From a virus (taxonomy: Duplodnaviria > Caudoviricetes): DNA of 61,640 nucleotides. The notes under the pieces were generated by a model. It was not told where the DNA came from. It saw only the letters and a program-made list of their open reading frames with translations, and did not search any database. This document shows positions 3,282 through 54,046 of the stretch, piece by piece (the first letter of the stretch is position 1; each line of letters begins with the position of its first letter). The stretch is from positions 1 through 61,640 of the IMG/VR virus record IMGVR_UViG_3300032326_000597. One strand, written 5' to 3'. Both the position numbers and the translations under genes were made by a program.

Positions 3282-3709
3282 ATTTCAAGTTGTTCATTAG
3301 GGTCAGGAATGTAAATGTCTAGCGTCTCAGCCGCAAATTGCTTGACGTGTTCCATGTATTCTATAAACTCCTCCGTTGCAAGCTCCGACGTTTTGCGTGG
3401 AATCTTCATGACTTCACCGGATGTCGGGTCGGTAAACTCCGTGTAGAGAAACCTTCCCTTGAGGAACTCATGCGTGAGGTCTCGGTCAACATCATGTCCA
3501 AGCTCGCGTAGTCTCTGCGATATCATGGCCACGACCACGCCCCAATAGTATGCGTTCTGCACGTCCGACCGGAACCGCTTCTTCAGTTTGACTTCGATGG
3601 TCACAGCCAAGTCCGTCTCACGGGACATGGCTCTGACGTCCTCTTCGAAGAGGGGGCGGTTGTAGATCCGCAACGCCCCCTGTGGTGTGATTACTGCGTT
3701 GTGCTTCAT
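3278..3709 (-). CDS. NinB-like recombination protein
   Basis: RS..QNAYYW, TSEL...EF.EY.E.V..FAA motifs. Confidence 0.7.
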   Translation of the reverse strand: MKHNAVITPQGALRIYNRPLFEEDVRAMSRETDLAVTIEVKLKKRFRSDVQNAYYWGVVVAMISQRLRELGHDVDRDLTHEFLKGRFLYTEFTDPTSGEVMKIPRKTSELATEEFIEYMEHVKQFAAETLDIYIPDPNEQLEI

Positions 3710-3939
3710 TGTATCCTCCACACTCTGACTCCGGTATCGAATACTTGAGTCTTGAATTTGTATTTGTCATTCTTCTTGCAGAACATACAAGCAGCTGCTG
3801 ATATTTTCTTGCGTACAGGTTCGGGGTCTGCATCTGTAATAAAGAATGAGTCTCCTACTACCATGTCCCTAAACGGGTATTTGCCAGACCTTGTGGTTTG
3901 TTTGGGTGCAGGCACATTCTTTTCGATTTGTATTTTCAT
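3706..3939 (-). CDS. small basic putative DNA-binding protein
   Basis: IEKNVP.P...KYPF.DM.VGDSF...GVRVWR family pattern. Confidence 0.75.
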   Translation of the reverse strand: MKIQIEKNVPAPKQTTRSGKYPFRDMVVGDSFFITDADPEPVRKKISAAACMFCKKNDKYKFKTQVFDTGVRVWRIQ

Positions 3940-4256
3940 TTGGTTGGTGTATTAAAATAATTATTGGTTACTAAATAATCGTACAGGCTGTCGAGGTCTT
4001 TGCATATCTCGTCCTTGTGTTCGTTATGCGCCTTCATGTCCTCTCTGAGTTCATATAGGTACGCCTTCTCGTACATGAACCATGAGAACCAGTCCATGCC
4101 TTCCTTGGTCAGCACGGCCTCCCATAGGTGCGTGGTTACGTAGTATTCGGAATCCATGAACTCGTTGAGGTCGATGCCCATCTTGTAGGCCGAGCTGACC
4201 TTGTTCGACGTCTCCTTCATGCGCTCACACGCTTTCTTGAATGCTATCTTTTTCAT
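3936..4256 (-). CDS. hypothetical protein
   Basis: 106 aa, EG.DW.SWF.YE motif; coupled. Confidence 0.75.
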   Translation of the reverse strand: MKKIAFKKACERMKETSNKVSSAYKMGIDLNEFMDSEYYVTTHLWEAVLTKEGMDWFSWFMYEKAYLYELREDMKAHNEHKDEICKDLDSLYDYLVTNNYFNTPTK

Positions 4257-5248
4257 GCCTCGTCCTCCTCTTCTGTTACGCCAAACCTCTTGGCTTGTTC
4301 TACTATTTGATTGAAGTCGTATCCGGCTGATTCTATCTCGGCGCGTACCTCCTCGTTCTTGGCGGTTATCTTTTCGCCTTTAGCGTAGCGGGCAATCACA
4401 CGGGTCCAACGTGCAACCTGAGACTTGACTGAGTCAGCGTAGTCTCTTGGTTCTTCGAAGTCGTATAGGAACTTGAGGTAGTTTGAATACTCGATGCCGA
4501 AGTTCTTCTTGAACTTGCCGTCTTCTACTATGATGTGTTTCTCAAGCGGAGGGCGTGTGCTCGACGTGTAGTAATGCGTGATGCCAGCAAGGTCTGCGAG
4601 GTACTCCTGCTCTAACTCTTCGTTAGGCTCGTATTGGAAGCACATCATTCGCAAGTCATCCTTGCAGATGTATACTAACTCTCCGTTGAGTCCAAGTCCC
4701 TTCATGTAGTGGAACAACTGAAGTCTGTGGTGCTTGATGGGTTTCTCGGTCTTCTCCATCATATCCATCACGAAGGATGAGCATGACTTGATTTCGAGAA
4801 CCTTCTTCTCTAATTCCTTGTCACCAAACTTCTCGTATAGCTTCTCTGCGATGTACAGGGACGATGCTTGGATAGACTCCGGCAGATGCGAGGAGGTAAT
4901 ATCTTGCTTGGCACGTTCGATGTCAATCTTGCCACCCGCTAGGAAGTCTAGGCGCCCCGATACCTTGAGCATGTTCGGGTACTCCACCATAACACGTTCT
5001 TGTGTATTGTTGATCAGTCCAGCTCGCTCTAGAACGTATCGTACCACCCATTCGACAAGGTTACCCGCTTCGAACTTGCGGAGGCTTCTCATGTTGGGAG
5101 GGTTGGTTGGTGTAACGGCTTTCATCTTGAGGTAACGGTCAACGAGAGGCTGTCCGATTTCAGATGCATAGCAATAGTCTCGTGGCTCTAGCGCACGTTG
5201 TTGGGAATACACGCATTCATTCCATAGTTGTTGTAGATTCCAATTCAT
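4253..5248 (-). CDS. PD-(D/E)XK (Cas4/RecB-like) exonuclease
   Basis: ASEIG, GRLD, EIKS, QLFHY motifs. Confidence 0.8.
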   Translation of the reverse strand: MNWNLQQLWNECVYSQQRALEPRDYCYASEIGQPLVDRYLKMKAVTPTNPPNMRSLRKFEAGNLVEWVVRYVLERAGLINNTQERVMVEYPNMLKVSGRLDFLAGGKIDIERAKQDITSSHLPESIQASSLYIAEKLYEKFGDKELEKKVLEIKSCSSFVMDMMEKTEKPIKHHRLQLFHYMKGLGLNGELVYICKDDLRMMCFQYEPNEELEQEYLADLAGITHYYTSSTRPPLEKHIIVEDGKFKKNFGIEYSNYLKFLYDFEEPRDYADSVKSQVARWTRVIARYAKGEKITAKNEEVRAEIESAGYDFNQIVEQAKRFGVTEEEDEA

Positions 5249-5258
5249 GTTGATTTAT

Positions 5259-5564
5259 TTAATTGTAAGTTGTTTTTACTTCTTCCCACACCCAGCCGTT
5301 TCCGATTCGGTAGTAGGTTTGGCCGTCGATGGTGGTTGTCGGCACGACGTCGCTACATTGCTCGTCTCGGTCGGTTTCGATAAGTGTTTCACCTTCCCAC
5401 CTGAATGTGGTCGCGCTGTCCTCGTCGAATGGTTCAGTTGCAAGGAAGCGCATTACCTCCGCCTTGCTCAGGTATGGCATTTCCCATCCGTTCCACCGTT
5501 GTCCGTCCGTGTAACCATCGTAAACGTCGCTGATTACATCGATTGAAAATTTAGTTCTCTTCAT
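5259..5564 (-). CDS. acidic hypothetical protein
   Basis: G.RWNGW.MP...IG.GWVWEE. Confidence 0.75.
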   Translation of the reverse strand: MKRTKFSIDVISDVYDGYTDGQRWNGWEMPYLSKAEVMRFLATEPFDEDSATTFRWEGETLIETDRDEQCSDVVPTTTIDGQTYYRIGNGWVWEEVKTTYN

Positions 5565-5748
5565 TTCGCTGAATGTTAAAAAAGATTGTTTTGATTTCGT
5601 TTGGTATATTCTTGAGCAGCCTTCCGCTCGATTGGTAGCTGGGTGAGACCTTGCCTATGTACTTCACGTTCTTGCCTATGATTGCATAAACGTCACGCGA
5701 ATGTTTTACAATTTCATACCCATCTTTGGTTTTAAATAGCCTTGTCAT
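5551..5748 (-). CDS. hypothetical protein
   Basis: 65 aa ORF in operon. Confidence 0.65.
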   Translation of the reverse strand: MTRLFKTKDGYEIVKHSRDVYAIIGKNVKYIGKVSPSYQSSGRLLKNIPNEIKTIFFNIQRNEEN

Positions 5749-5796
5749 TTGGATTGTAAATATAGTGTAACTTCAATGGTATCAGCTAATCTTAAT

Positions 5797-6117
5797 CTAA
5801 TTAAGACTATTTAGCTCTTCAGCGAACACCTCAGCGAGCACATCTGCGAGGTCTGCTTCTTCTGATTTAGTCAGTAGTTTGCGAAACGCGCGAGCATCCA
5901 CCCACCATACATTGTCGGTCTTCTCGTCGTTCATGTCGCACACAGGACACTTGGTAAATGGCCTGTCAGATTTCAATCCGATGTCCACAACGAGGATACA
6001 TCCACAGCTATTTCTTTGTATAGCCATAGCTGTGAACACATCCCCCTTGAGGAATACACCTTGTGAGTGGTCTTTGATTGCGACGATGTCGTCGCCGGTG
6101 CGGTAGTCGATTATCAT
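5797..6117 (-). CDS. Cys-containing hypothetical protein
   Basis: CGC and CPVC; likely start MIIDYR. Confidence 0.7.
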   Translation of the reverse strand: MIIDYRTGDDIVAIKDHSQGVFLKGDVFTAMAIQRNSCGCILVVDIGLKSDRPFTKCPVCDMNDEKTDNVWWVDARAFRKLLTKSEEADLADVLAEVFAEELNSLN

Positions 6118-6165
6118 TTGTCTACGTCTTTTAAGAGCCACATCATTAGGTTGAAGATAAGATGG

Positions 6166-37930: not shown

Positions 37931-38658
37931 CCATTAAGAATATAAAATATATCGCCACTTCGGCCCTATATCGTTTGGGGAAGAACCCGGTTGGTCGTGA
38001 GTTGAACTGGATGGTTCAAGTGGCTATTGACTACCTAAGCGAGAAGTCTCCGCTAGACGGCAACGTGTCCCTGAGAACAATCTATGGAAAGATTGATACA
38101 GGGGCGCGGGTATTTACCATGCCTGGGGACTGCATGAGAATCTCTAAAGTGGGATTAAAGTCAGGCCGTCGCATTTGGACCCTGACTCCGGACACGTCTT
38201 TGACTTATCCTGAGGAGTTCTTTCAGTGTGAAAGCGATCAGAACGATCCAGTTGTTGTTGATGGATTATTTCCTTACGGATATTTTGGGTTTTTTTATAA
38301 TCAACCCGAATATGGCCGGGGTGGTGGACGTAATGAGAACTACTACCGAATAGACGGTAACAATATCATTTTCGATCACAACATCCCCGACGGGCAGTTA
38401 GTAATCGAATACTTCTCAAACGGCTCGGACGTTAACGAGGATAGCTTGATTGACACGGCATACGCGGAGCCATTCCGTTTGTATTTGATGGCGGAGTATT
38501 GCCTGCACAAGGGTAACTCATTGGACCGCTCTAAGTTCAAAGAGTTACAGATGCAGTACGAGGCAGCCCAGTGGAGTGCCAACATTTTAGTTAAGGCCCC
38601 ACGACTGAGTGAGATGATTGACGCGCTTGCACAAAGTTCAGAGTTTAACTTAGGATAA
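37927..38658 (+). CDS. tail ring protein
   Basis: MP.D...I.KVG, Y.I.GN.I.F, VIEY.S.G. Confidence 0.65.
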   Translation: MTIKNIKYIATSALYRLGKNPVGRELNWMVQVAIDYLSEKSPLDGNVSLRTIYGKIDTGARVFTMPGDCMRISKVGLKSGRRIWTLTPDTSLTYPEEFFQCESDQNDPVVVDGLFPYGYFGFFYNQPEYGRGGGRNENYYRIDGNNIIFDHNIPDGQLVIEYFSNGSDVNEDSLIDTAYAEPFRLYLMAEYCLHKGNSLDRSKFKELQMQYEAAQWSANILVKAPRLSEMIDALAQSSEFNLG

Positions 38659-41600
38659 TGGATTTCAACGAGATAATAACATTTGAGGGTGGTATAAACA
38701 CCGACGACACGCCTCAGGGTATGCCCAAGGGCGACTATCGTGACTTTTCATACTGTCGCCTTGGTTATAACTCTGGTAACGCCTTCGCTGTAGAGACGTC
38801 GAGCGGAACTATTGAAATAAACAACTCATTTATTAGCGAAGAAGACAAGGTGCTTGGAGCTACGCAATGGCTTAAAGAAAACGCGATTGTTTATTTCGTT
38901 TACAAATACTCGCCGCCTCCAGTACCTCCATTTCCTCCGCCTCCCATACCTCACCAGATTTGGGTTTACTATATCGCGACTCAGACCCATGAGCTTGCAG
39001 TTCAAGACTTAGTGTTAAACTTTAGCCCAGACTGGCCAATCTTTCACGCGAATGTGATAGACGATATTCTAAAGTGGACTGATGGACGTTGGAATGATCA
39101 AATGTATGAGGACGACGGAACTCGACTTTTCAACCCGCCGTATCAAATCAATTTACGCAAGGCTCTTGATGGCTTTTATACATTAATTGACCTTCAGACT
39201 ATAGACGCTATTAAGTGGCCGATGGAGCCACCTATTGTGAGTTACTTTACGGATACAACCCGCAACGACAACAAGCTGCGCGGCAAACTTTTTAAGTTCA
39301 TAATTCAACCGATATATGAAAACGGAGAACTTGGTGTTTGGTCGATGTATTCTAATTTGGCACTGCCCGATCAGTCTGAGCTTGTTAGTGGAACTAACTG
39401 GGTGTTTCTTAATAACGACAACGTAATTAGGATTCAGTTTGATACAGGCCCAAAGGTTATTCGAGGCTTCAATTTAGCTGTTCAACAGTACGATAGAGAC
39501 TCATTCGGTGCTATTCCTCCATTTGGTGTTTTCTTGCAATTAGATAAAGTTCTTGACAACATAAACGATAACTCGTTTCATACAGTTAACTTTTACGGCA
39601 GTGTTGCCACAAGTCCAGCTATTGACGTACTTAAGAATTACGACAGGCTACCTGTAATTGCTGATTGTCAAGAGTACTTGCCAACTAATCAGTTGACGTA
39701 TTCAAACTTTAGAGAGGGTTACGATAAACCTACAGGCACTCCATTTACATTGAACGTTCAGGTAGGTTACGATGTCAGCGAGGTTAGATGGAACCCGGCT
39801 GATTCTAGGACACTATATAAGGCAGAAATAGAGATCGATAAGTTTATAATTCAATACGATGGCGATCCATACGCTAATGCAAGTAGTAAGTTTATATATC
39901 AAGTAGGAGATATAATTTATTTTATTACATGGAGCGATAGTGATCCTCAAAATCCATACAGCAATAGGCGACTGTTTTACAGCATATCACAAGAAGATGT
40001 AGATGTCGCGCTAACCTTTCCTCTTCCAATAGATCAAAACGGATATATACTACGGCTGATAGGCGATTCTTTTATAACACAATGGAATGCTACGGGATAT
40101 TTTCAATTGCCCGGAACCACCTCGGTTTATAGTACGGACGGAATACAGTACGAAGCAAATCGCCTAATAGGCTTTGATGGCCCAGTCAGAACTTCTGATT
40201 ATCAGAGTACAGGAAAGTTGATTGTTGGCGGTTCATTTAACGCGGCTGCAAACTCTCTTTCAAAGGGGATATGCAGGCTAAACACCCTGGGAACAACTCT
40301 GACGATTGGTTCAGTTGACCGCACGTTTAGTGAATATGCAGGAACAGGCTTCAACGGTGATGTTTATACCGTAAAGGTTCAGATAGATGGATTTGATTAC
40401 ATATTAGTGGGTGGTTCGTTTACTGAGTTTAATGGGGTTTCAAGAAACAAAATAGCTCGACTAGGTCCAGACGGTTGGCTTGACACGACATTTGATCCAG
40501 GAACGGGTTTTAATGGAAACGTATATTCAATAGATATACAAGAATCTGATAATAAGATTGTAGTTGGAGGAGACTTTACGAGTTATAACGGGCAACCAGT
40601 AAATCTGATTGCTAGGTTAAACTTTGATGGAAGTTTAGACGACACCTTTACGTCTCCTGTGACTACCGTTACTCCTGGCGTGAGTAAGGTTAATGTGGTG
40701 GCTGTTCAATCCGGAACGTCTAATCCAATGGCTGGAAAGATAATTATAGGTGGATTTCAACTCGGAATACCGTCCGCTATTTCTAGCAACATAGCAAGAC
40801 TAGGTGTTGACGGATCTTACGATAACACGTTTATAGCAAATCCGAATGGAGCTGTTTATGACATAGCCTTTTCCACACTTACCGGCACACCAGACGCCTA
40901 CATAGCTGGAGATTTTACTAATTGTAATGGGCAACTTAGAAACAGAATTGCTCTTTTATATTTTACATCAGGAATTGTAGTGCCTAGCATTTTTATAGGC
41001 TCGTCATTTAACGACACGGTCAGGTCTATAAGTATAAACCCCGTCAGTAGTGGTACACAGGAGTGGATTTATTGTGCAGGCGACTTTACGGATTATGACT
41101 CTACTGCAACTTATGGTATTGCTACATTAACAGAAACTGGATTTCTTATTCAGTCTAATGCTAGCGCAACTACAATTAACGGAACTCCCCTTAACATTAT
41201 ATTTAACGACTTCCCAAATCGTCTTTTTCTTTTTGGCGATTTTATATATGACGGTGTTACCTTACCAGATGGTAGAAACGGTGTTCTTTTATCATCCACT
41301 TTACTTCTTTATTCTACAAATGCAGGGAAACCATCTATAGATATTGGTACATTACCAACTGGCACTAACTCTGCAAAGCAAATTGATTACGACAAGGTAA
41401 CGGCGGCAACACCAAGCTTGAAGGTGGGTGCGACCCATGAGTTTGGAATTGTTTACGGAGACAGGGCATATAGGGACAGCACGGTTTACACCGTGGACGA
41501 CATGAACTTATTTGTGCCTTGGTTTTATGATATAGCTAATTCCGGGGTATTAAATGATAATAAGAATCCGTTCACTGTAACCCCAAACATTACAATCAAT

Positions 41601-43937
41601 CATGTCCCCCCTGTTTGGGCTGATAGGTACTGGATAGTAGCCAAACCTGCTACTGAAGTTTTAAGTTTTGGTCAGTATATAACCAATAACAACGACGGAA
41701 CTACAAGTTGGCAGGATTCTATAGTTTTAACCGGTGTAGGAAATAATAAACGATATAAAATATATATCGACAACTGGTATGAAAGAGAAAACAAGGGGGC
41801 TACCATCAGGCATGAAATCAAGATTGGTGATAAACTTAGATTTAAGAGGTCAAACTTTTATTATTTAGATTACCTATCATACCTAGAGCTTGATATTGTT
41901 GGTGTAGAAATTGGCGCAGGTAACGATGGTAGGACTGCTGTATATACAAATCTTTTTGACAGAAATATCATATCTGTTGCGGATGATTTCGCAGGATCCG
42001 GCAGTAAAGTGTTTGGACAAGAATTAGAGATATACACTCCAAGACCTTCGGTAGACGACACAGGTAATATATTTGTGTCTCCATGGAAGGATATAACCGA
42101 GGCGATTCAGATAAAAAATCCACACACAGAGGATAGGTCGCACGGGTCTCCTGTTCAGTATTACCTTCAGTGGAGTCCTAATTTTTTCAGTGGAAACTAT
42201 TTTTACATCAGCGGAGACCAAAGCCAACTGTCTGGAACATCTTGGCCAAACTCGACCGTCCATTATGCGGACGGAACAGTTTTCCAAGAGGCAACAAGCG
42301 TAAATACCGCATCGTATGACAGCATAGAAAACATCACAAGAATAGAACTAACAACCGTTAGTCCTGATCCGACAATTTCTTACATAACACTTAACGGTCA
42401 AGACCAAGTAGTTAACGGCCTTGTTAGCAGCACCGCTGCGTCTTATAGCATCAATTATGGAGATGTTTATTTAAGACTAAGAAACAGCAGGACTGGAACT
42501 TCGGGGGCGCAAGATGAGTTTTATTATTTCATGGAGGACTTCAACTACTCTGACTACTACCCAAGCGACGTTCATAATGACGGAAGGACTAGGATTGAAG
42601 ATCAGAACGCCAAAATGGTTCACCGCAAGGCGTCCTCTATTCATTCGGACTCTTTTATCTTAGGGACTCAGATAAACGGACTTTCTTCGTTTGGACTTGA
42701 CAATCGTAATATCGAGGACATGAATCCTCTTTATGGAGAGATAGTAAGGACTTATATGTCTGGTCGTGAGGGTAAGACATTAAAATGTCTCCAACCAAAG
42801 AGGGAGAACTCGATTTACATTCAGTTCTATCCCAACGAGGTTGGTTCCGATTCAAGTGTTCGCGTATCCAACAAGACATTTGCTTCTTGGTTTGACTACA
42901 AGAGTCTTTTCGGGTGTTCTGATGCCGGGGCTGCCGCGCTTCTTCCAAACGGAGCTGTGATGTACTTTGACAACAACTCCGGGGTGTTCGTTTACTCAGG
43001 CGGAAACGGCCAGATGGTGGTAAGTGAAATAGATCCTGATACCGCAAAAGATTACAAATTCAGAACAAAGACAAAGGAGCTTGCTAAGGCCTATAACGAG
43101 AGCGCAAATCCTCTTGTTAGGACGTATATAAACGAAACCGTTGGTGAGGTAGGTTTTGCGTTTAGTTTTGATAACGAGGAGACATACGAACACGTAGTGT
43201 TTGACTACGTAAACATGAGGTGGCGTTCAACCTACGACTACAACTTCCGTCAGTTCTGCAATTTAGGACAGACGCTAGTTGGTTGGGGTAAGAACAATCA
43301 GCTTTACCTACACAACCAAGACGGTGTTTGGACATTCCACGGAGACTCATTCATTCAGAAGGTCTCGTTCGTATCAAACGAGAATCCATTACTGTTGAAG
43401 CGTTATCAGGACATAACTTTAATATCGGACGATAAGTTTTCAATCGAGGCGGTATCTGAACCAAACAGAAGTTATCCTCTTGGAATGAAGACCATGATGA
43501 CCGAGAACTTGCTTGGAATGTATGAGGGGTATGGTAAGACGAACTACAGAAAGAACCTGTACGATCCTAGGTTCTGGATTCCTGGAAACGTGAGCGAAAC
43601 AAACACAACGACGTGGATACTAAACGGTAATCAGACCTCGCTTGTCGGGGAGACCATTACCATTGTCCAAGATGACAAGAATATATATACAGGGGTAATT
43701 ACAAACCCTGTTTATAACTCAGGACCAAACACTACAGATATCGAAATAGTAGGATTTCAGCCAGGAACTGCGGGCGTGGATGGCAAATGGTATTTGAGTG
43801 AGAAGGTGTTATTGAACGGAGAAGATGTGAGAGCAAACGCCTTAACACACACGTTGAGTTATGACCCGGCAGCATCTGGGGCATCTGGTGAAGGTTCTGT
43901 TCTTTTCTCTGTTGGAATTAAGGGTGTTTTATCATAA
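38658..43937 (+). CDS. tail stabilisation/muzzle protein (P22 gp10-like) with delta-60 repeat insertion
   Basis: F.GG.NTD......P.G.YR start, L.WTDG, SLK.G...FGIVY.D, YG.I; DUF5122-like repeats at about 40170-41250. Confidence 0.8.
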   Translation: MDFNEIITFEGGINTDDTPQGMPKGDYRDFSYCRLGYNSGNAFAVETSSGTIEINNSFISEEDKVLGATQWLKENAIVYFVYKYSPPPVPPFPPPPIPHQIWVYYIATQTHELAVQDLVLNFSPDWPIFHANVIDDILKWTDGRWNDQMYEDDGTRLFNPPYQINLRKALDGFYTLIDLQTIDAIKWPMEPPIVSYFTDTTRNDNKLRGKLFKFIIQPIYENGELGVWSMYSNLALPDQSELVSGTNWVFLNNDNVIRIQFDTGPKVIRGFNLAVQQYDRDSFGAIPPFGVFLQLDKVLDNINDNSFHTVNFYGSVATSPAIDVLKNYDRLPVIADCQEYLPTNQLTYSNFREGYDKPTGTPFTLNVQVGYDVSEVRWNPADSRTLYKAEIEIDKFIIQYDGDPYANASSKFIYQVGDIIYFITWSDSDPQNPYSNRRLFYSISQEDVDVALTFPLPIDQNGYILRLIGDSFITQWNATGYFQLPGTTSVYSTDGIQYEANRLIGFDGPVRTSDYQSTGKLIVGGSFNAAANSLSKGICRLNTLGTTLTIGSVDRTFSEYAGTGFNGDVYTVKVQIDGFDYILVGGSFTEFNGVSRNKIARLGPDGWLDTTFDPGTGFNGNVYSIDIQESDNKIVVGGDFTSYNGQPVNLIARLNFDGSLDDTFTSPVTTVTPGVSKVNVVAVQSGTSNPMAGKIIIGGFQLGIPSAISSNIARLGVDGSYDNTFIANPNGAVYDIAFSTLTGTPDAYIAGDFTNCNGQLRNRIALLYFTSGIVVPSIFIGSSFNDTVRSISINPVSSGTQEWIYCAGDFTDYDSTATYGIATLTETGFLIQSNASATTINGTPLNIIFNDFPNRLFLFGDFIYDGVTLPDGRNGVLLSSTLLLYSTNAGKPSIDIGTLPTGTNSAKQIDYDKVTAATPSLKVGATHEFGIVYGDRAYRDSTVYTVDDMNLFVPWFYDIANSGVLNDNKNPFTVTPNITINHVPPVWADRYWIVAKPATEVLSFGQYITNNNDGTTSWQDSIVLTGVGNNKRYKIYIDNWYERENKGATIRHEIKIGDKLRFKRSNFYYLDYLSYLELDIVGVEIGAGNDGRTAVYTNLFDRNIISVADDFAGSGSKVFGQELEIYTPRPSVDDTGNIFVSPWKDITEAIQIKNPHTEDRSHGSPVQYYLQWSPNFFSGNYFYISGDQSQLSGTSWPNSTVHYADGTVFQEATSVNTASYDSIENITRIELTTVSPDPTISYITLNGQDQVVNGLVSSTAASYSINYGDVYLRLRNSRTGTSGAQDEFYYFMEDFNYSDYYPSDVHNDGRTRIEDQNAKMVHRKASSIHSDSFILGTQINGLSSFGLDNRNIEDMNPLYGEIVRTYMSGREGKTLKCLQPKRENSIYIQFYPNEVGSDSSVRVSNKTFASWFDYKSLFGCSDAGAAALLPNGAVMYFDNNSGVFVYSGGNGQMVVSEIDPDTAKDYKFRTKTKELAKAYNESANPLVRTYINETVGEVGFAFSFDNEETYEHVVFDYVNMRWRSTYDYNFRQFCNLGQTLVGWGKNNQLYLHNQDGVWTFHGDSFIQKVSFVSNENPLLLKRYQDITLISDDKFSIEAVSEPNRSYPLGMKTMMTENLLGMYEGYGKTNYRKNLYDPRFWIPGNVSETNTTTWILNGNQTSLVGETITIVQDDKNIYTGVITNPVYNSGPNTTDIEIVGFQPGTAGVDGKWYLSEKVLLNGEDVRANALTHTLSYDPAASGASGEGSVLFSVGIKGVLS

Positions 43938-46075: not shown

Positions 46076-49000
46076 ATGAACGAGAATCAGTTAAAGTTCC
46101 TTTGGGATAATTACGCAAACAATAAGGGTTTCAATGGCTATGATGAGTTTAAGTCTTTAATGGCTAACAACAATAGTCGTAAAGTGTTTTTTGAAAACTC
46201 TAATAAGGAGCTTGGATTCAAAGACTATAATGAATTTGAGAGTATTCTTGGTGTAAAAAAAAAAGACGGTACACAAGCCGCTTCTGGTCAGCCTGTACAG
46301 CAGCCTGGTCAGCCTTCTGCGCCGAGTTTTGGCCAGAAAGTAGTAACACAAGCGTTTACTAGCGGAGAGCCGATCATGACTAAGGGCGTTCAAAAGAAGC
46401 CCATCGAGAAAAGACCCTATCAAGATATTTATTACAAGCCTGAAGCACAACCGTCTGAAACTACTCAGGCCGTGGAGACTCCTGTTATTAAGGCTGCAAA
46501 GCAAGACTTTAAGCAAACACAACTAAAGTCACCCGTAAAAGCACCCGTTACTCCTGAGGGTATACAAGAACTTGAAGAGAAGATCAAGGAGCCGGACAAG
46601 ACATTCCTCAAATTCCAAGACTATCAAACAAGCATTGAAGACTTAGATGAACTGGAGGAGTTGTATGATGAAGATTTATCCGCGTTTCAATCCAAGATAA
46701 GTAGACGGCCTGATCTATACGCTAAATATTCGGGTAGAAACGAACAGGAAGTTGCTGACTTCTTTGATGCGCTTTCTGATGACTCAAACCCATACAGACG
46801 TAATGAAGCTCAGGCTCAGTATAAAGCCGAGTCTAATGCGTTGTATGAGAACTTTGTAAAGGATTACAAATCACTAAAATCAAAGCACGGTCAAATAACA
46901 TCCGACCTGGGTGTTATGACCGATAAGTTGATTAGTGATGTGGTCAATGAAAAAACTTACAAAAAATTTTTAGCGAAAAGAGAATTTGCTGTTGGCCCCA
47001 CAAACGCAGAGGCTTCGTTTGGCGAGGTAATTAGCATTGATGATGTTGACAAGGCCGCTACAGAAATAGTTGATAGGTACGGATTACCCACGGACGGAGA
47101 GGCATGGAGACTTGTGAAGAATAAGATTAAGGGTGAAGTTTTTAATCAGTACATGAAACCTAAGGTTAATGAAGAACTGAAGAAAACAAACCCAGAGCTT
47201 TTAGCTAAGAGACAACAAATGTTTGATGCCGGCTTCAAGGCTGATGATGATATTTATGCTAAGGCAGACTCGGTATTGATTGCACTTCAAAGTCAATATG
47301 AACAAGACGCCAAGGCTGAAATGGATTTGATAAACTCAGAGTACGTAGGTGCTTCTGACAAACTAAATCAGGTTTATCAAACGGCTGTTGCCAATATAGA
47401 AAAACAACAATCCGCTTTAAATGATGCATACAAGAGTGGTAAAATAGATCAGCTTGATTATGAGTCTGCTTTTACTAAACTTGAAGATGACAAAAAGCTA
47501 TATTATGATGAGTACCAAAAGAATTATCCAAGCTACGACCAATATGTCAAGAAATCTAATGAGATAAACTCTAGGTATAATAGGAAGTTTGAGATACAGA
47601 AAAAATTAATTACAGACAAGGCCCAAGCAGAATTAGAAGCGGCATATAAAAAGTATTCCGAAACATATGAAGAGGACCCTAAGCTTCTTGAAGAATTAAA
47701 CAATGCATACAAGGTTGCATATGACAATGTTGTAAAGCAACAGGGAGATGTAATGAAGATGGGTGCTAGTATATCAGCGAACCCGCTTAGCTCTCTTTAC
47801 AATTCAACAATGAGTGCGGTTGGTGGCGTGTTCAAGGGATGGGGTGGATCGATGGGTAGCAAGTCACTAGAGCTGCTTGGTGAGACCATGGAGCAAAACT
47901 TTATGATGCCTGCCCCAAGAACTGAGGATTTTTCCGACTGGGCAGACCCTCAAAACCTATCCATGATAACAGGTAACGTGATAGGTTCAGCGGGATTATC
48001 TATGATTCCAACGGCAGCAGCAGCGGTTGGAACCGCATACGCAACCGGAGGTTTGGGACTCCCTGCGTCCGTTAATATGGTAACTTCAGGTATTGTAGGC
48101 GCATTGGTTCAATGGGGAGCTGAAACCATTGATACCGGAGGAAGATCTTATCTTGATGTTTTTGAAAGAAGCGGCGGCGATGTAGCGAGAGCAAATCAAG
48201 CCGCCAAAAGATCAGTCAAATCTCAGTTCGATATAATCGGGTTATACTCATTTGAGGCATTACCATTTATTGGAAAGGCTTTGAAGTTTATCCCCACACA
48301 AGTCGCTAGGGCGGGTGTTGGCGCCGTTGTAGAAACTACAACGGAATTTACTCAGGAGATTAGACAAGGTATTGCCGAGGAGAATATCGTGGAGTTCGAG
48401 CGTGACCCATGGTACAATTTTGACGAGGCTATAAACGATGAGAGAAGAAGAAAACAAACCTTAATCTCAATAGGCCCTGTCGGCATCTTGGGAGGTGCTG
48501 GGCAGATTGGCTCTAAGTCAATTTATCAAGAGCGAAGAGATGCGGCTATTGCCCAACAGCAAAAGTCAGCACTGGTTACTGCGCTTCCAGATCAAAGAAG
48601 ACAGTACATTCAAAACATGGTGTTTAACAGAAACGGCAAGTTCGCCAATGCTGTTATAGCATCGTTGTACGCATCAGGAAAGATAGATGAGAAAACATCT
48701 GCCGACATGATGCTCGAAATCAAAAGAGCTGAACAAATCAAGGAGGCTGGCAAGTCCGCTGGGCTGAGTGGTTCGAAACTAAACATCTACGGATTCTATT
48801 CAGCAAGGGCTGAGGAGGCTGAAAGAAATGCAGGAAAGTTTGCGGCGGACCCTATACTCTCTAAGGTGTATGAGGACATGGCAAAGCAATATCGTGATGC
48901 TGGTGTTGAATTTATGAATGGCAAAAGTCCTGATCTGTTGACGCTGACTTACGCGGACGGGTCACAAGCCATTATGCTGCCGGAGGATGTTAATGCCCTC

Positions 49001-52000
49001 TTCTCTGATCCTATAGCTCTTTCTCTTTTGAATGATAAGTCTATATCGATAGAGGCATATGATGAAAATGGTCAAGGGCCAAAAATAATTGAAGAACTAG
49101 GCCAACGTGCTGAGACATATGCTAAGAAGAATAGGTACACGGAGGCTTCTAAGTTTTCATCACCTATGCAGGGGCTGCGTCAAAACATTAGCGACAGAAT
49201 CCAGCAGCTGTATGCCATGAGGGCTGACTTGAATGAAAGACAAAAGCAGCAGGAGGCGGAAAGAATAAGACAAGAAGAAACTGCCGCATTTGAGCAGAAG
49301 CAAATGCAGAGACAGCAGCAAGAGTCTGGGGAAAGGGATTTGGAGATTGAGAGACTGCAACAGCAAAGAATGGCGTTAGGCATAGATGACGTCACCGCCT
49401 TCTTTAGCGACATGAAGCCGTTGGTAGCAACAATGGTTGAAAGAATGGAGGCTGGTCAATCCGCCCCACAGTCCGGTATAAAGGCAGCGTCTGACTATCT
49501 GTACTCAAAGTACAAGGAGTTGACAGCAATGAAGTCTGACCCTAACAGGATGATGACCATTGCTCAGATTGAATCCATACAGGCTCAGTTAGAACAAGAT
49601 TTACAAACCTTGGCGGGGAATCCTCCGTCACAAAAAACACAAGTCAATGATCAAGAAAACATCCAAGGGGTATCAGGTGAAGTCGGAGTCGGGCAAGAAC
49701 CTGTCACAACCGAACCTGTCGAAGTCCCAAGCGCAGAAACGCCTGAAGCAGGTGGAGTACTTCAAGCACAAAGGGAAGAAATAGACCCTAGGAAAATTGC
49801 AGTAGAAAAAGCTCAAAATCAATTAGATGGAGTAAACTCTAGAATAAATCCAAAGGCTAATCATCCACTTTTTAATGTTGGACAAAAGCATGATCCTGGT
49901 AATAAACTTATAGTAACAAACAGTGAAGACAGGCGAACCGACACGACTAAAGATGGCGTAGAGGTAATAACTAAAATACTTTCCCCAGCTGAAGTGGATG
50001 AGAACGGTAGAATGACTAAGGCCGCTGAAGTGGAGATAGGTATATTTGATTCGTATGAACAGGCACAGGAGTATGTAAATAGCCAGTACAATAAATATAA
50101 GGCTATAGCGGATGAAAAATTAGCTAAAGCTAAAGCAGAGCTAGCCGCCGTAGAGGCCCCTAAAACACAAGAAGAAGTAACTCCTGAAGCTGCCTCTGAA
50201 GTTAAGCAGCCTGAGATTGCAAAAGATATATACGTAGGAAGCATAACTCAAACTAGTTTGGGCTGGGAGTCAGCTACCGAAGACCAAGGTCCTGGGGATA
50301 TGAGGCAACTCAGTTATACAGCTAATTCTGGAGTGGAGGTCACAAAGGGTGAGGATGGTAAAACATACGCCGTAGCATTCACTACAAAGTCAAGCGATGG
50401 CAAGAAAAGCCTTACCGACATAAGCGGAAGACCAGGATTCTTCTCTGTGTCGGTCAATATCCCAGACGGAGCGACTCAGGAACAGATTGACAAAGCAAAA
50501 CAAAAGGCTTCAGAGCAACTCAGTTTGTTGCACCCATTCATCAAAGCTCAGAAGGGCGGAATGAACAACACATCTGTGTTGAAAAAAGTGCTGAGTGGTG
50601 AAGTAAAAATAAAACCAACAACTACAGCGGGCGGCGTATCTCAAGCAAAACAAGCCGCCCCTCAAGTAGAAGAAGCAGCTCCAGCTAAAAAAGAGAAAGC
50701 TCCAGAGACAAAGCCTGAAGTCAAAACCGAACCCGTCTTTAACGACGATATAAAAACAAACTTTAAGCCTTCTGAAAATCTGTTATTTAACCAAGGGGGC
50801 TTTGATAATCTTCAGAGTCAAATAGGTGTTGATCCAGATATAAAGACTAAGTACGTACAGTCTAAGGGGGTTAGTACTGCTGCCGGAAGAAGAAAAACTT
50901 TATCAAACAACTTGACGGATGCTTTGAGAAAGATAGGCCGCGTATTTGAAGGTGAAAAGATTGACCTGCGTGGTATGTCTGAACAGGCAATTATTGACTA
51001 CGCAAACACGCTTGATGAAATAGCGACAAAGAACGAAAGGTTTGGTGGCAAGAGAGCAACCATAACCAAGTCATCTAACTTTGGAAGAGACGTTGAAGAG
51101 TTTGACGGTCGCGTTATTGGTTATGGAAGCTTTGGTGTTCGCATAATTACTGATGGCGGCGCGATTATAGAAGGTAAGAAATTTTCTGATTACACTCCAA
51201 AAACTGAACAGAAGCCAGTATCCGAGGTCAAAGAAGCGCCTAAGGGTAAACCAGGCCGCCGTGAAAGATTAGCCAAACTATTTGAAGAACCTAAGGTAGA
51301 AGTTGTGCCTACTGAAGAGGCAGGGGTGGAAGCTGCTCCTGAAATGACTCCTGAAGAGATTAGAATCAATATGAAGCCAATCACAGATGAGATGGCTAAC
51401 ATTGAAATGGAGTTTGCTAATAACGGGTATTCTATTGACTGGGATTACGACAATGAGATAATCATCACCGATAAAAACGGGGAGATAGTAGACGCTGAAG
51501 AATTACCTAAAAAACTTCTACCTCTTGCCGCTCAATACGAAAAGGCGACAGCCGGCCTTGCAGGGTATGATTTCGATTCATATCGAAAAGCCCTTGAGCA
51601 ATCAAGAAAGGATGTTGGCGGAATAGAAACTGAGTTTGAAGAAGTAAAACCACTAGCAATAACCGAAAAGAAAACAGAGAAAGCCCCAGCAAAGCCGTTT
51701 GCCAACATCAAAAATTTGTTCAAGAAAGGATTTGGCGGCAAGAGGGTTTCAGAAAGAGAGGCTTTTTCCTTGAACAAAGAGTTAAACACCCTTATAGAAA
51801 AAGCTGAAAAAGAGAACGGTGTTCAACGTGATAATCTTAAACTCGCTACCTGGAAAACAAATGACGGCTACACTATAACCGAGTTTTTTGAAAATAAGAG
51901 AGGAGGAACAAGAGTCATCACTCCAGAAGGCGAGGAGATAAACCTGTATGATAATAAATACAAGTACGAAACTGGCCAAGAAATATCATATTTCCCAGAG

Positions 52001-53548
52001 GCGGCACTAGCAACTACTGAAAAGGCGACGGAGGAGGCTCCGCAGCCAAAACCCCAAGCGGCTCAGACAGAAATGCAGATGCCTGAACGGGTTGTTGTTG
52101 AAAAGAACAATGAAAACATAAATTCACTTATAGCCAAAAAGAGTCGTTATAATTCATTGCCAAAAACAAAAAAGGCAATTGGAGCAAATTTGCTTGAAAA
52201 GATAAAGCAGGAGGCGGCTGATATGGGCTTTAGTGTAATAACCACTTCGGGGTTAAACATAAAAATAGTAGATGCTCAAACTAGAAAGCCAATATCAAAA
52301 AGAGGAGTTTCAAGGACCTCTAACAAAGAGTATATACAAAAGAAAAGAGAAGCGCAATCATTAGCCGAAACAGGACAGCTAGGTTTAAGGGCAAGCATTT
52401 TAAATTACTTCATAGGTGGCAAAAAAATTAAGTCTAGTCAATCTGAACTTGGGGAAGGGTCTGCGGAGATAAAGTCAGCCGAAAGAAAAGGTCTCGTTTC
52501 TGCATCTGCGGAAAGCATAGATGGGGTAGCTGGAGATATTATTAGCAATATCTATGGCGATATAGAAAACGCTCCTGAAGGCATGGAGGACAATGTAATT
52601 ACTGAATTGCAGGACGTTCTTGCCACCCATGAAGATAGAGTGAGTATGGAGGAAGAATTGTTTGACTTGTATGAAAAGTTAATCAAGGATCAAGAGGAGG
52701 CGGCAAGATACAATACGGCGGAAGATGCTGATAGCGCAATGGATGAAGGATTGCTTGATGAGGATTCTCTTGTTGAGTATTACGAAACACAATCTCAGAT
52801 AAATAAATTAACAGAAAATGAACAAGAAAAACTATACAGGGAACTCTACCCAGAAGCCTTTGAGCAAGAGGCAGAAGGCACTAGTGGCATGGGCGATGTT
52901 GAAGGATCTACGCGAGAAGGGAGAGGGGCAGAAAAATCTAAATCGAAAAGACTCCAAAGGGCAGAAGAACTAAGGGCAAAGGCTCAAGATTTAAGAGACG
53001 CTTCAGGCGGAACGCTTATGGCGGGTCCAAAGTTACTTGCTGCCGCATACGAAGCTTACGCGACTATTCTTGAAACCACCGAAAGCATTATTGAGGCAAT
53101 CAAGAAGTTCAAGGGAACAAAAGAATACAAAGACCTCGATGTTAACGGCAAGAAGGAACTAGACGTTGTTCTTGCCACCGACGCGGTTGAAGAAGAGATT
53201 TCTTCGGGGAGAGATCCTCAAGAGGCTGTTGATGATTTAATCGGAAGTCAAGACTGGTATGGCGATTTGAGTGACGCTCAGAAAGAACAGTTGAATGAAA
53301 TCCTTCAAGACGATTTTGGAGTTACGGTAAGCGAGCCAAAGCAAGTGACGCCACTTGGGGAACAGATTTCAAGCATTGTTGATAATTACTACAAGCTCAA
53401 GGACAAAACGCCTGGAGCAAGGGATGCTATCAACGAAATTTTGGACGCTGACCCAAAGTTGAAGTATATTTACGACAATATTCGCAAGATTAACAAGCAG
53501 CTGCAAGAAGCAGGTGTGATAACAGATAAAACCGACGGTTGCCCGTAA
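46076..53548 (+). CDS. giant (2490 aa) internal virion/ejection protein, polyvalent-like
   Basis: Helical N-part, G/A-rich hydrophobic segment, acidic linkers between small domains. Confidence 0.75.
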   Translation: MNENQLKFLWDNYANNKGFNGYDEFKSLMANNNSRKVFFENSNKELGFKDYNEFESILGVKKKDGTQAASGQPVQQPGQPSAPSFGQKVVTQAFTSGEPIMTKGVQKKPIEKRPYQDIYYKPEAQPSETTQAVETPVIKAAKQDFKQTQLKSPVKAPVTPEGIQELEEKIKEPDKTFLKFQDYQTSIEDLDELEELYDEDLSAFQSKISRRPDLYAKYSGRNEQEVADFFDALSDDSNPYRRNEAQAQYKAESNALYENFVKDYKSLKSKHGQITSDLGVMTDKLISDVVNEKTYKKFLAKREFAVGPTNAEASFGEVISIDDVDKAATEIVDRYGLPTDGEAWRLVKNKIKGEVFNQYMKPKVNEELKKTNPELLAKRQQMFDAGFKADDDIYAKADSVLIALQSQYEQDAKAEMDLINSEYVGASDKLNQVYQTAVANIEKQQSALNDAYKSGKIDQLDYESAFTKLEDDKKLYYDEYQKNYPSYDQYVKKSNEINSRYNRKFEIQKKLITDKAQAELEAAYKKYSETYEEDPKLLEELNNAYKVAYDNVVKQQGDVMKMGASISANPLSSLYNSTMSAVGGVFKGWGGSMGSKSLELLGETMEQNFMMPAPRTEDFSDWADPQNLSMITGNVIGSAGLSMIPTAAAAVGTAYATGGLGLPASVNMVTSGIVGALVQWGAETIDTGGRSYLDVFERSGGDVARANQAAKRSVKSQFDIIGLYSFEALPFIGKALKFIPTQVARAGVGAVVETTTEFTQEIRQGIAEENIVEFERDPWYNFDEAINDERRRKQTLISIGPVGILGGAGQIGSKSIYQERRDAAIAQQQKSALVTALPDQRRQYIQNMVFNRNGKFANAVIASLYASGKIDEKTSADMMLEIKRAEQIKEAGKSAGLSGSKLNIYGFYSARAEEAERNAGKFAADPILSKVYEDMAKQYRDAGVEFMNGKSPDLLTLTYADGSQAIMLPEDVNALFSDPIALSLLNDKSISIEAYDENGQGPKIIEELGQRAETYAKKNRYTEASKFSSPMQGLRQNISDRIQQLYAMRADLNERQKQQEAERIRQEETAAFEQKQMQRQQQESGERDLEIERLQQQRMALGIDDVTAFFSDMKPLVATMVERMEAGQSAPQSGIKAASDYLYSKYKELTAMKSDPNRMMTIAQIESIQAQLEQDLQTLAGNPPSQKTQVNDQENIQGVSGEVGVGQEPVTTEPVEVPSAETPEAGGVLQAQREEIDPRKIAVEKAQNQLDGVNSRINPKANHPLFNVGQKHDPGNKLIVTNSEDRRTDTTKDGVEVITKILSPAEVDENGRMTKAAEVEIGIFDSYEQAQEYVNSQYNKYKAIADEKLAKAKAELAAVEAPKTQEEVTPEAASEVKQPEIAKDIYVGSITQTSLGWESATEDQGPGDMRQLSYTANSGVEVTKGEDGKTYAVAFTTKSSDGKKSLTDISGRPGFFSVSVNIPDGATQEQIDKAKQKASEQLSLLHPFIKAQKGGMNNTSVLKKVLSGEVKIKPTTTAGGVSQAKQAAPQVEEAAPAKKEKAPETKPEVKTEPVFNDDIKTNFKPSENLLFNQGGFDNLQSQIGVDPDIKTKYVQSKGVSTAAGRRKTLSNNLTDALRKIGRVFEGEKIDLRGMSEQAIIDYANTLDEIATKNERFGGKRATITKSSNFGRDVEEFDGRVIGYGSFGVRIITDGGAIIEGKKFSDYTPKTEQKPVSEVKEAPKGKPGRRERLAKLFEEPKVEVVPTEEAGVEAAPEMTPEEIRINMKPITDEMANIEMEFANNGYSIDWDYDNEIIITDKNGEIVDAEELPKKLLPLAAQYEKATAGLAGYDFDSYRKALEQSRKDVGGIETEFEEVKPLAITEKKTEKAPAKPFANIKNLFKKGFGGKRVSEREAFSLNKELNTLIEKAEKENGVQRDNLKLATWKTNDGYTITEFFENKRGGTRVITPEGEEINLYDNKYKYETGQEISYFPEAALATTEKATEEAPQPKPQAAQTEMQMPERVVVEKNNENINSLIAKKSRYNSLPKTKKAIGANLLEKIKQEAADMGFSVITTSGLNIKIVDAQTRKPISKRGVSRTSNKEYIQKKREAQSLAETGQLGLRASILNYFIGGKKIKSSQSELGEGSAEIKSAERKGLVSASAESIDGVAGDIISNIYGDIENAPEGMEDNVITELQDVLATHEDRVSMEEELFDLYEKLIKDQEEAARYNTAEDADSAMDEGLLDEDSLVEYYETQSQINKLTENEQEKLYRELYPEAFEQEAEGTSGMGDVEGSTREGRGAEKSKSKRLQRAEELRAKAQDLRDASGGTLMAGPKLLAAAYEAYATILETTESIIEAIKKFKGTKEYKDLDVNGKKELDVVLATDAVEEEISSGRDPQEAVDDLIGSQDWYGDLSDAQKEQLNEILQDDFGVTVSEPKQVTPLGEQISSIVDNYYKLKDKTPGARDAINEILDADPKLKYIYDNIRKINKQLQEAGVITDKTDGCP
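49647..49784 (+). CDS. 45 aa basic protein nested in the +1 frame of the giant gene
   Basis: MIKKTSKGYQVKSESGKNLSQPNLSKSQAQKRLKQVEYFKHKGKK; A-rich leader; resembles a free-standing phage family. Confidence 0.7.
   Translation: MIKKTSKGYQVKSESGKNLSQPNLSKSQAQKRLKQVEYFKHKGKK
52818..52973 (+). CDS. 51 aa basic protein nested in the +1 frame of the giant gene
   Basis: MNKKNYTGNSTQKPLSKRQKALVAWAMLKDLREKGEGQKNLNRKDSKGQKN; aaataaattaacagaaa leader. Confidence 0.45.
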   Translation: MNKKNYTGNSTQKPLSKRQKALVAWAMLKDLREKGEGQKNLNRKDSKGQKN

Positions 53549-53554
53549 TAAAAC

Positions 53555-54046
53555 ATGAAACCTTATAGCTTAGACAAAGGTGTAGTAGACCTACTAGCTC
53601 CACGCCATCTTGACGAGATGGATGCATTTTACTTCTATCGTGCCGCCAGCAACTGGTGTCAGGGTGTTGGATACTTCAAGGCAGCTGCCTTTTTCGCGGC
53701 TGAGTCTCAGGACGAACTCGAACACGCGGCCAAGATTGAAAAGTACTTGGTGGACTGGAACATCACCGTTCCACTTCCCACTGTACCCAAGCCACGTGTA
53801 GACTTCTCCGGGCTTCTTGAGGTGCTAGAGGAGGCGTACAAGATTGAGTACGATTTGTACGAGGCGTATGAAGACACGTCCAAGAAACTTTTCAACATGG
53901 ACCTTTGCACGTTTGACTTCTTGCAGCAGTTCCGTTTGATACAGACCAAGTCTGTGGCGGAATACAGCGACAAGCTTAACCTGCTTGAGGATGTGGATGG
54001 AAAGGATAAATTCAAGTTATTGCTTCTCGAAGAAAAATTGTTCTAA
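53555..54046 (+). CDS. non-heme ferritin (Ftn-like)
   Basis: E..A.Y.Y....WC...G....A.FF..ES.DE.EHA, E.AY.IE, D..TF.FLQ.F...Q. Confidence 0.9.
   Translation: MKPYSLDKGVVDLLAPRHLDEMDAFYFYRAASNWCQGVGYFKAAAFFAAESQDELEHAAKIEKYLVDWNITVPLPTVPKPRVDFSGLLEVLEEAYKIEYDLYEAYEDTSKKLFNMDLCTFDFLQQFRLIQTKSVAEYSDKLNLLEDVDGKDKFKLLLLEEKLF

Follow-up and report, generated by a model that had tools for sequence, protein, structure and literature searches.

A small basic gene nested in a giant phage gene: probable dual coding and probable engulfment of an older reading frame

Anatomy of the overlap

The virus record IMGVR_UViG_3300032326_000597 (Duplodnaviria; Caudoviricetes) contains a giant open reading frame (ORF) of 2490 codons, inside which a complete gene for a basic protein of 45 amino acids (aa) is encoded in the +1 frame. 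The DNA analyzed is the full IMG/VR record of 61,640 bases (estimated completeness, 94%), hereafter the window, in which the small gene is present once. The small gene had been noticed in a reading of the sequence alone (the original prediction), and its position, ATG, and peptide are exactly as given there. The features of the overlap are as follows:

46076..53548, + strand: giant ORF (2490 codons) of mosaic make-up within the late (structural) block; relatives share its N-terminal half and its last ~125 residues, with a variable middle part between them
49622..49646, + strand: leader of the nested gene, A-rich, G-poor, and without a Shine-Dalgarno sequence; presumed internal initiation region of the Bacteroidia type
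49646..49786, + strand: frame-0 reading of the overlap (about giant codons 1191–1237), an acidic linker rich in Pro, Gly, Glu, and Gln with a net charge of −9
49647..49784, + strand: nested small gene in the +1 frame of the giant ORF, with an ATG start, 45 aa, and a net charge of +11

The small ORF (translation, MIKKTSKGYQVKSESGKNLSQPNLSKSQAQKRLKQVEYFKHKGKK*) lies entirely within the giant ORF, and the offset of 3571 bases between the two starts, (49647 − 46076) mod 3 = 1, places it in the +1 frame. The locus is thus a same-strand nested overlap, with one ORF fully inside another in a different frame. Frame 0 across the overlap reads ...NDQENIQGVSGEVGVGQEPVTTEPVEVPSAETPEAGGVLQAQREE..., a translation that agrees with the acidic linker of the original prediction. 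The predicted A-rich leader is likewise present (cacaaaaaacacaagtcaATG) and also encodes residues of the giant protein in frame 0.

The stretch 49647–49784 is very likely dual-coding, representing an older small gene that was read through by a giant structural gene, with both frames kept. Its anatomy, conservation, and signatures of selection are directly observed.

Conservation of the small gene and its start

A scan of IMG/VR yielded 481 confirmed viral stretches, of which the best 80 by similarity to the window's family were analyzed. The small ORF is nested in 51 of these loci, within stop-free frames of 935–3423 codons, and its frame is always +1 relative to the giant. The remaining 29 loci have it free-standing, with no long frame overlapping it.

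Purifying selection on the nested frame is evident from substitution ratios, from the diversity at the three codon positions, and from a phase flip in the giant genes. Among 41 unique nested copies, the Nei-Gojobori (NG86) ratio of nonsynonymous to synonymous change (dN/dS) is 0.11 in the small frame, whereas the giant frame gives an apparent value of 3.0 and the third frame one of 1.8, and synonymous sites of the small frame are saturated (proportion of synonymous differences, pS, 0.65). The mean amino acid identity among nested copies is 0.82 in the small frame and 0.49 in the giant frame, and replacements in the small protein are conservative (K/R, Y/F, S/T). Pairwise diversity at small-frame codon positions 1, 2, and 3 (0.196, 0.121, and 0.427 in 39 unique nested copies) has the same shape in 18 unique free copies (0.276, 0.213, and 0.590). 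One locus with a one-residue insertion (L064) was excluded from the dN/dS estimates, the DNA tree, the open-frame recoding, and the counts of T and of lysine plus arginine described below; another (L081) was excluded from the dN/dS estimates and from these counts.

The original prediction had called for a look at synonymous-site constraint in frame 0, and the constraint is pronounced. In a codon alignment of five giant genes, the third-position diversity of the giant frame is 0.5–0.6 on both flanks and 0.03–0.06 over codons 1174–1235, where the first giant-frame position turns most variable (the phase flip). Bins of six codons give a third-position diversity of 0.00 for codons 0–29 past the small ATG and of 0.07 for codons 30–35, with recovery after codon 42; first-position diversity in the overlap reaches up to 0.48. 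Upstream of the ATG, the third-position diversity of the five sequences is 0.10–0.12 at codons −18 to −7 and 0.10 at codons −36 to −31, compared with 0.38–0.53 further upstream. This lowered synonymous variation could reflect a constraint on the initiation region, a promoter, or recent exchange; informal inspection by eye revealed no Bacteroidetes-type promoter upstream of 49647.

The original prediction also hinged on the ATG and the stop being conserved among related giant genes, which is the case. Each of the 42 unique nested copies has a start codon where the free homologs begin (ATG in 36, GTG in 4, and, in the remaining 2, ATG one codon further upstream), and the nested ORFs encode 43–58 aa. 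A stop in the small frame precedes the start by 0–7 codons in 26 of the 42. The fraction of A at positions −25 to −1 is 0.50 in these copies, as opposed to 0.35 (standard deviation, 0.11) in 25-mers of the giant ORFs, and although the upstream flanks are unrelated between lineages, the leader stays A-rich. The frequency of A at −14, −13, and −12 is 0.85, 0.70, and 0.90. In Flavobacterium johnsoniae, which ignores the Shine-Dalgarno sequence, initiation is promoted by A at −6, at −3, and at −14 to −11, where −12 and −13 matter most (PMC6847099); the nested starts agree with this published signature at −14 to −12 and at −6. Among the free copies from other host types, GGAGG-like words are frequent.

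These data bear on the possibility that the small gene is a fossil, i.e., a once free gene that was swallowed by fusion and is now untranslated, its frame surviving because the fusion is recent. The existence of free-standing homologs makes engulfment plausible, and no RNA run was found to contain the stretch. However, the saturation of synonymous sites at a dN/dS of 0.11, the start codon in every unique copy, the narrow range of ORF lengths, and the persistence of the A-rich leader in unrelated upstream contexts render such a fossil highly improbable.

Selection on the giant frame

The giant frame has no stop in any of the 52 nested copies, the window included. If the small protein is held constant and its codons are replaced by random synonymous ones, using the codon usage of each copy's own giant ORF, the probability that the giant frame remains open has a median of only 0.001 (range, 0–0.115; 41 unique nested copies). 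Free copies contain 0–7 stops in the equivalent frame, which is stop-free in only 3 of 25. The third base of the small frame before codons starting with AA, AG, or GA is never T in the nested copies (0 of 602 sites), whereas it is T at 18% of 388 such sites in the free copies. Lysine and arginine are also scarce, with 2.9 per 43 codons of the giant frame in nested copies and 6.5 in the same frame of free copies, at equal G+C content. With 51 of 80 loci open, no T at the 602 sites, and basic residues depleted, the host frame is both intact and under selection.

The net charge of the linker in the window (−9) lies far below that of stop-free synonymous simulations (+3.7 ± 3.3), none of which was as low (0 of 300), and the observed charge is below all 300 simulations in the window and in most loci. 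Together with the depletion of lysine and arginine, this suggests that the acidity of the linker is not just a by-product of out-of-frame lysine codons. The claim that one stretch of DNA yields both a basic peptide and an acidic linker thus gains comparative support from the low dN/dS of the small frame, the stop-free giant frame, and the depletion of basic residues.

An alternative would be that the 2490-codon frame does not encode one protein across the overlap, so that the two parts are separate genes and frame 0 is open by accident. Relatives are indeed cut differently: one locus (L058) has a 1339-codon gene that begins ~64 codons upstream of the small ATG, and in two others (L006 and L030) parts of the giant gene, among them the downstream modules, are in separate ORFs. 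Nevertheless, this alternative is very unlikely, because the window lacks a frame-0 stop over all 2490 codons, the chance of an open frame is ~0.001 per lineage while 51 of 80 loci are open, and none of the 602 sites at which T would be risky has it. In addition, the coding signature of frame 0 (third position most variable, about 0.5–0.6) resumes on both sides of the overlap, and even in L058 the frame of the downstream gene overlaps the small gene.

A widespread family of basic mini-proteins

The original prediction had pointed to a family of stand-alone phage genes resembling the small protein, and the family proves to be real. It is a large, unnamed family of basic mini-proteins with the consensus MIKKTxKGYQVKSESGKNLSKPNLSKxQAxKRLxQVEYFKH. 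Its invariant residues in an alignment of 30 members (A1) are G8, V11, S13, G16-K17-N18, R32-L33, and F39, all of which are present in the protein of the window; the latter also matches the profile over its full length and falls into the size range of 43–58 aa. A word-indexed search among proteins of 24–79 aa gave 477 matches at E ≤ 0.01, and the best 120 of them are 73–93% identical. With A1 as the search profile, 1478 clusters (50% identity) were found among 1.84 billion representatives at E ≤ 0.001, 290 of them at ≤ 1e-10. Most cluster members have 45–110 aa, and a few are longer. Three of the longer proteins (P0161, 199 aa; P0206, 169 aa; P0192, 395 aa) have two or three tandem domains or carry the domain C-terminally in a longer protein without a Pfam match; P0161 comprises three tandem copies, and the domain of P0192 is located at residues 355–394.

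Stand-alone homologs, whose absence would have spoken against the original prediction, exist also among phage records, although the searches turned up no cultured phage that has the nested form. The single significant match of a tblastn search against 50,697 phage records is a free-standing, unannotated ORF of Aeromonas phage 1233 (MIVKRKGGYHVVSSDGKNLGG…EVEYFKHRK), with 23 of 42 residues identical (pairwise E, 2e-16):

OR359403.1 54727-54852 (L001 6001-6132), minus strand of the record: family member of Aeromonas phage 1233, 43 aa, unannotated

The 67-kb record of this phage has 28 annotated features in all, and the 812-aa protein encoded upstream of the family member shows no similarity to the giant protein.

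AlphaFold2 predicts a compact fold from the 30 rows of A1 (mean predicted local distance difference test [pLDDT], 92.0), with a beta-hairpin at residues 2–12 and a helix at residues 26–42. Searches with the small protein detected no family in Pfam or NCBIfam at either E ≤ 1 or E ≤ 10, no match among PDB sequences, and only weak matches among PHROGs (phrog_26216, E 0.065; phrog_3684, E 0.23). The 45-aa model gave no Foldseek match to the PDB at E ≤ 0.001 (best, 3bid; E 1.3) and no VIA-align match with Z ≥ 5 among 48,161 chains (best, 4.7). Weak VIA-align rows with the AP2/GCC-box and lambda integrase N-terminal DNA-binding domains (Z, 3.5–3.6) are a lead only. Fold matches in BFVD concern uncharacterized viral proteins (E 0.03–0.5), some of which hold the domain inside longer proteins labeled prohead protease or cytidyltransferase-like, and matches in the ESM Atlas are confined to unnamed clusters. 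By profile comparison (hhalign), the family aligns with residues 1–45 of a 466-aa head-module protein of T1-like Klebsiella phages (probability 90.7%, E 1.3e-6).

A tentative guess at the function of the small protein is the binding of nucleic acids in connection with head assembly or DNA packaging. It is prompted by the strong positive charge, the small sheet-plus-helix fold, the terminase and portal genes in the neighborhood, the fusion to the T1-like head-assembly protein, and the homologs in the chromosomes of several phyla. Alternatively, the small protein may have a role directed at ribosomes or RNA.

Nested copies, free copies, and the order of events

The free copies provide insight into how the overlap may have arisen. 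Among the 29 free-standing viral loci, the large terminase gene (TerL) is directly beside the small gene in 12 and the portal gene beside or near it in 2 more, and none has a tblastn match to the giant protein (0 of 29). Thirteen of the nested loci have giant ORFs without detectable similarity to that of the window. One free copy with a TTG start (L051 873-3800), located two genes past a portal of the same PHROG as that of the window (phrog_6547), is the sister of a nested copy (L035) on the tree described below (support 99); it may represent a release from nesting or another gene order.

The family is not restricted to viruses. When one genome per prokaryote species was scanned, the confirmed stretches numbered at least 502. 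The best 80 of them, with 57–84% identity to the family, come mainly from Acidobacteriota, Omnitrophota, Planctomycetota, Alphaproteobacteria, and candidate phyla. Seventy of the 80 loci were parsed correctly (7 were unparsed and 3 mis-parsed); among these 70, the small gene is free-standing in 63, nested in 4 (frames of 1057–3304 codons), and accompanied by open frames of 334–601 codons in 3. Two of the nested copies (L088 and L120) are ~5 Mb apart on a single Prolixibacteraceae (Bacteroidota) chromosome (OY781040.1), where the same protein sequence is nested in frames of 1719 and 3304 codons. The proteins of the window gave no tblastn match at 1e-4 in the four nested genome loci (L084, L088, L112, and L120).

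Chromosomal copies of Acidobacteriota and Omnitrophota have ordinary cellular surroundings. A Pfam search on ten neighbors of six such copies gave matches for eight, all of them to ordinary cellular families (amino acid permease [twice], FadL-like porin, short-chain dehydrogenase, LemA, deacetylase, and radical SAM [twice]) and none phage-like. On two chromosomal contigs of Acidobacteriota (L094 and L097), the small gene follows an amino acid permease gene identified by Pfam, and a third acidobacterial contig (L099) has a same-sized ORF, outside the Pfam scan, at the position of the permease (about 3700-6130 for the region in the three contigs). This arrangement has the appearance of conserved synteny of the chromosome, not of a prophage.

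When a DNA tree of the small ORF is rooted with the copy from the Aeromonas phage, a single derived clade takes in 49 of the 52 nested rows. The nested or free state requires a minimum of 5 changes on this tree, as opposed to a mean of 23.4 after shuffling of the labels (0 of 500 shuffles as low). By the phylogenetic criterion for overlapping genes, the frame with the widest distribution is considered ancestral (PMC8227390). The small gene is far more widespread than its nesting, so that by this criterion it would be the ancestral partner and the local frame of the giant gene the newcomer. The restricted distribution and lack of remote homologs expected of a gene overprinted de novo do not apply to the small gene, which has 1478 clusters and free copies in phages and bacterial chromosomes. 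The small gene is therefore probably the older partner, although the order of events is deduced from breadth of distribution. This supports the second option of the original prediction, according to which the giant gene grew by reading through a small neighbor that stays functional: the latter stands alone in cellular chromosomes, in Aeromonas phage 1233, and in 29 of the 80 viral loci, and these 29 lack any tblastn match to the giant protein.

The giant gene, its neighbors, and its host

The giant ORF belongs to a one-strand block behind the genes of the large terminase (phrog_6681), the portal (phrog_6547), and a 1759-aa protein. The latter (38658-43937, + strand) has DUF5122 beta-propeller repeats (E 6.2e-35) and matches a PHROG annotated as virion structural protein. 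Seven bases past the stop of the giant gene lies a gene for a 163-aa ferritin-like protein (53555-54046, + strand; Pfam Ferritin, E 7.7e-19, and also Rubrerythrin); a structural block is an unusual site for an iron-storage or Dps-like protein. The label "virion gene", which the original prediction gave to the giant ORF, is a putative one drawn from this position in the late block behind terminase and portal. The giant protein itself has no match in Pfam, in PDB sequences, or in the 50,697 phage records (blastn and tblastn), and only weak ones in PHROGs.

The mosaic structure of the giant gene is apparent from tblastn comparisons. Residues 60–1235 are 78% identical in one lineage (L063), ~52% identical in three (L005, L020, and L029), and 30–35% identical in five more, and residues 2367–2490 (the last ~125) recur in many loci. 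The overlap forms an island of homology in these mosaic genes: it is touched by 27 distinct tblastn segments, of which 16 have their start ≤21 codons before it and 20 their end ≤13 codons behind it, with both true of 10. Immediately before the small gene lies a conserved stretch, for which a second alignment (A2) was made:

49520..49645, + strand: conserved helical stretch of the giant protein (…TAMKSDPNRMMT…QLEQDLQTL…; about giant codons 1149–1190), with a helix at model residues 14–31

From a shallow alignment of 9 rows, AlphaFold2 predicts the overlap as a coil (block-mean pLDDT, 51–59) between two helices. The original prediction had also proposed that the basic peptide binds the linker as its counter-peptide. 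This idea found no evidence, and the free-standing homologs work without such a linker; a complex prediction for the small protein and the stretch of the giant frame (A1 and A2) scored 0.00 but was run without controls and thus gives no verdict either way.

The host is probably of the Bacteroidota type. The relatives of the portal protein among 85 records are distant (≤23% identity) and comprise Cellulophaga, Flavobacterium, and Maribacter phages and one unclassified Caudoviricetes record, and a Shine-Dalgarno-like word is found in only 5 of 40 leaders of the ORFs in the window; both observations point to such a host. The two nested copies on the Prolixibacteraceae chromosome are in keeping with this host type.

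An island of homology in mosaic genes would fit a recombination joint, and the stretch might have been kept as a DNA or RNA element (recombination anchor, packaging signal, or regulatory signal) with the small frame as a by-product. This is most unlikely in view of the strict three-base period in the small frame (0.196/0.121/0.427) with its conservative replacements, and of the same protein being 60–70% identical in bacterial chromosomes and other phages with a different DNA context; any role in recombination may be secondary to conservation at the protein level. A programmed +1 frameshift into the small frame, which would yield a truncated N-terminal half with a basic C-terminal domain and is reminiscent of family members that carry the domain C-terminally (e.g., P0192) and of the window's small frame being open for 18 codons before the ATG, was rejected as extremely improbable, because in 26 of 42 copies a small-frame stop just upstream leaves hardly any space, if any, to a conserved shift site, all 42 copies keep the start where free-standing homologs begin, and the upstream sequences of the lineages are unrelated.

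A model of engulfment and dual expression

Taken together, the preferred reading is that of a dual-coding stretch with an engulfed older gene. In a phage lineage infecting hosts of the Bacteroidota type, a long structural gene would have come to read through the small gene in the −1 (= +2) frame. Since this engulfment, selection would have maintained the small protein and, at the same time, kept the giant frame stop-free and poor in basic residues. A late transcript would span the structural block, and ribosomes in frame 0 would produce the giant protein of 2490 residues (about 275 kDa), which is probably virion-associated and in which the overlap would serve as a disordered acidic spacer between exchangeable modules. 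Internal initiation at AUG 49647, behind an A-rich leader of the Bacteroidia type that lacks a Shine-Dalgarno sequence, would yield the basic protein of 45 residues with its predicted beta-hairpin and helix. Translation of both products, the order of events, and the function of the small protein are inferred.

Several points weigh against this reading. Sequencing runs listed for the stretch window:48600-50800 comprise 20 DNA runs, one of which contains all of the sampled words and is probably the source sample, but no RNA run, and the giant ORF is probably a virion protein judging from its position only. The A at −3 that is favored in F. johnsoniae (PMC6847099) occurs in only 30% of the nested copies. 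The charge of the linker is not extreme in 9 of 38 loci (fraction of simulations as low, >0.04), a further locus (L061) yielded no simulations, and the charge simulation depends on the chosen codon-usage model. The 80 viral loci are those most similar to the window's family, so that the ratio of 51:29 favors nested forms and is not an unbiased frequency; moreover, they are related metagenomic contigs, and their counts are not independent events. The tree is based on 126 trait-bearing columns, most of its forks are weakly supported, and one of its rows (L081) is misaligned. Finally, searches of Pfam, NCBIfam, and the PDB returned no homolog of known function.

A more far-reaching reading, which is speculative and rather unlikely, would be that the disordered linkers of giant phage structural genes shelter pre-existing mini-genes, which stay functional in the +1 frame, that the conserved island serves as a joint for module swaps, and that the sheltered gene encodes a mini-protein of a cellular type that binds nucleic acids or ribosomes and mimics a host factor. 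If this were true, the small protein would be an unrecognized and widespread host-factor mimic, common to the chromosomes of bacteria (Acidobacteriota, Omnitrophota, and others) and to many phages.

The probable engulfment of the small gene reverses the usual case, in that an old gene is swallowed by a growing one and the newcomer frame is a disordered linker. Giant phage genes would thereby have a concrete way to grow and to shuffle their modules, and the overlap offers a natural test case of two frames under different types of selection. The proposed model of expression, in which ribosomes start at an A-rich patch within a translated ORF and need no Shine-Dalgarno sequence, can be tested in Bacteroidia. 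The small gene, nested under a giant ORF, would easily be passed over by annotation, and even the free copy of Aeromonas phage 1233 is unannotated. A large family without assignment in Pfam, NCBIfam, or structural databases is also a clear target for small-protein biology.

Comparison with known systems

A formal parallel is found in phage lambda, where the small gene Rz1 lies wholly inside the larger gene Rz, on the same strand and in the +1 frame, with a single late transcript presumably serving both. Rz1 is a lipoprotein (lipobox Cys) that acts together with the product of its host gene (i-spanin). The small gene of the window has the same arrangement with respect to its larger phage gene. 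By contrast, its host gene is a giant mosaic ORF rather than a spanin gene, its homologs stand alone, and the nested gene appears to be the older one. An embedded Rz1-like o-spanin was rejected as a candidate: the 45 residues include no Cys, so that a lipobox is not possible, and the host ORF of 2490 aa has no spanin match.

A different relationship is seen in the T1-like Klebsiella phages, where residues 1–45 of a 466-aa protein (vB_KpS_GP-1 XGT88803.1) align with the small-protein family. Here, the domain is fused in frame instead of being nested, and the identity is only about 38%. The gene belongs to the head-assembly block and is followed directly by the genes for decoration and major capsid proteins. 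The remainder of the protein belongs to phrog_760, with weak matches to DUF2213 and to PHROGs of head-maturation proteases; proteins of this type are annotated as "capsid protein" or as "prohead core protein protease", depending on the record. The polyvalent proteins of phages and conjugative elements are reportedly giant polypeptides with 2–15 recognizable domains related to biological conflict. The giant ORF of the window is modular and mosaic; a Pfam search found no domain in it.

Searches of an open-access literature collection retrieved reviews of nested and overprinted phage genes but nothing on the small-protein family or its arrangement. The internal overlaps of phiX174 (E within D and B within A) and viral genes overprinted de novo are reviewed in PMC8227390. 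They share with the window the same-strand internal overlap, the combination of one constrained and one disorder-prone frame, and the same third-position logic. The usual model of overprinting takes the nested gene to be the new one, which is narrowly distributed and lacks remote homologs (PMC8227390); in the present case, the nested gene is widespread (1478 clusters), and it is the local frame of the host gene that is limited to the nested clade. The same text reports that +2 proteins originated de novo are enriched in basic residues (PMC8227390). The newer frame of the window is also +2 relative to the older frame, yet its product is acidic.

Nested +1 genes in phages, such as Rz1 in Rz of lambda and E in D of phiX174, are already known. 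What is new, as far as the literature searched goes, is the probable reversal of the genealogy and the depth of conservation across a clade whose giant ORFs are otherwise unrelated. New also are the unnamed family of phage and bacterial mini-proteins and the double selection, which acts on sequence in one frame and on composition and the avoidance of stops in the other.

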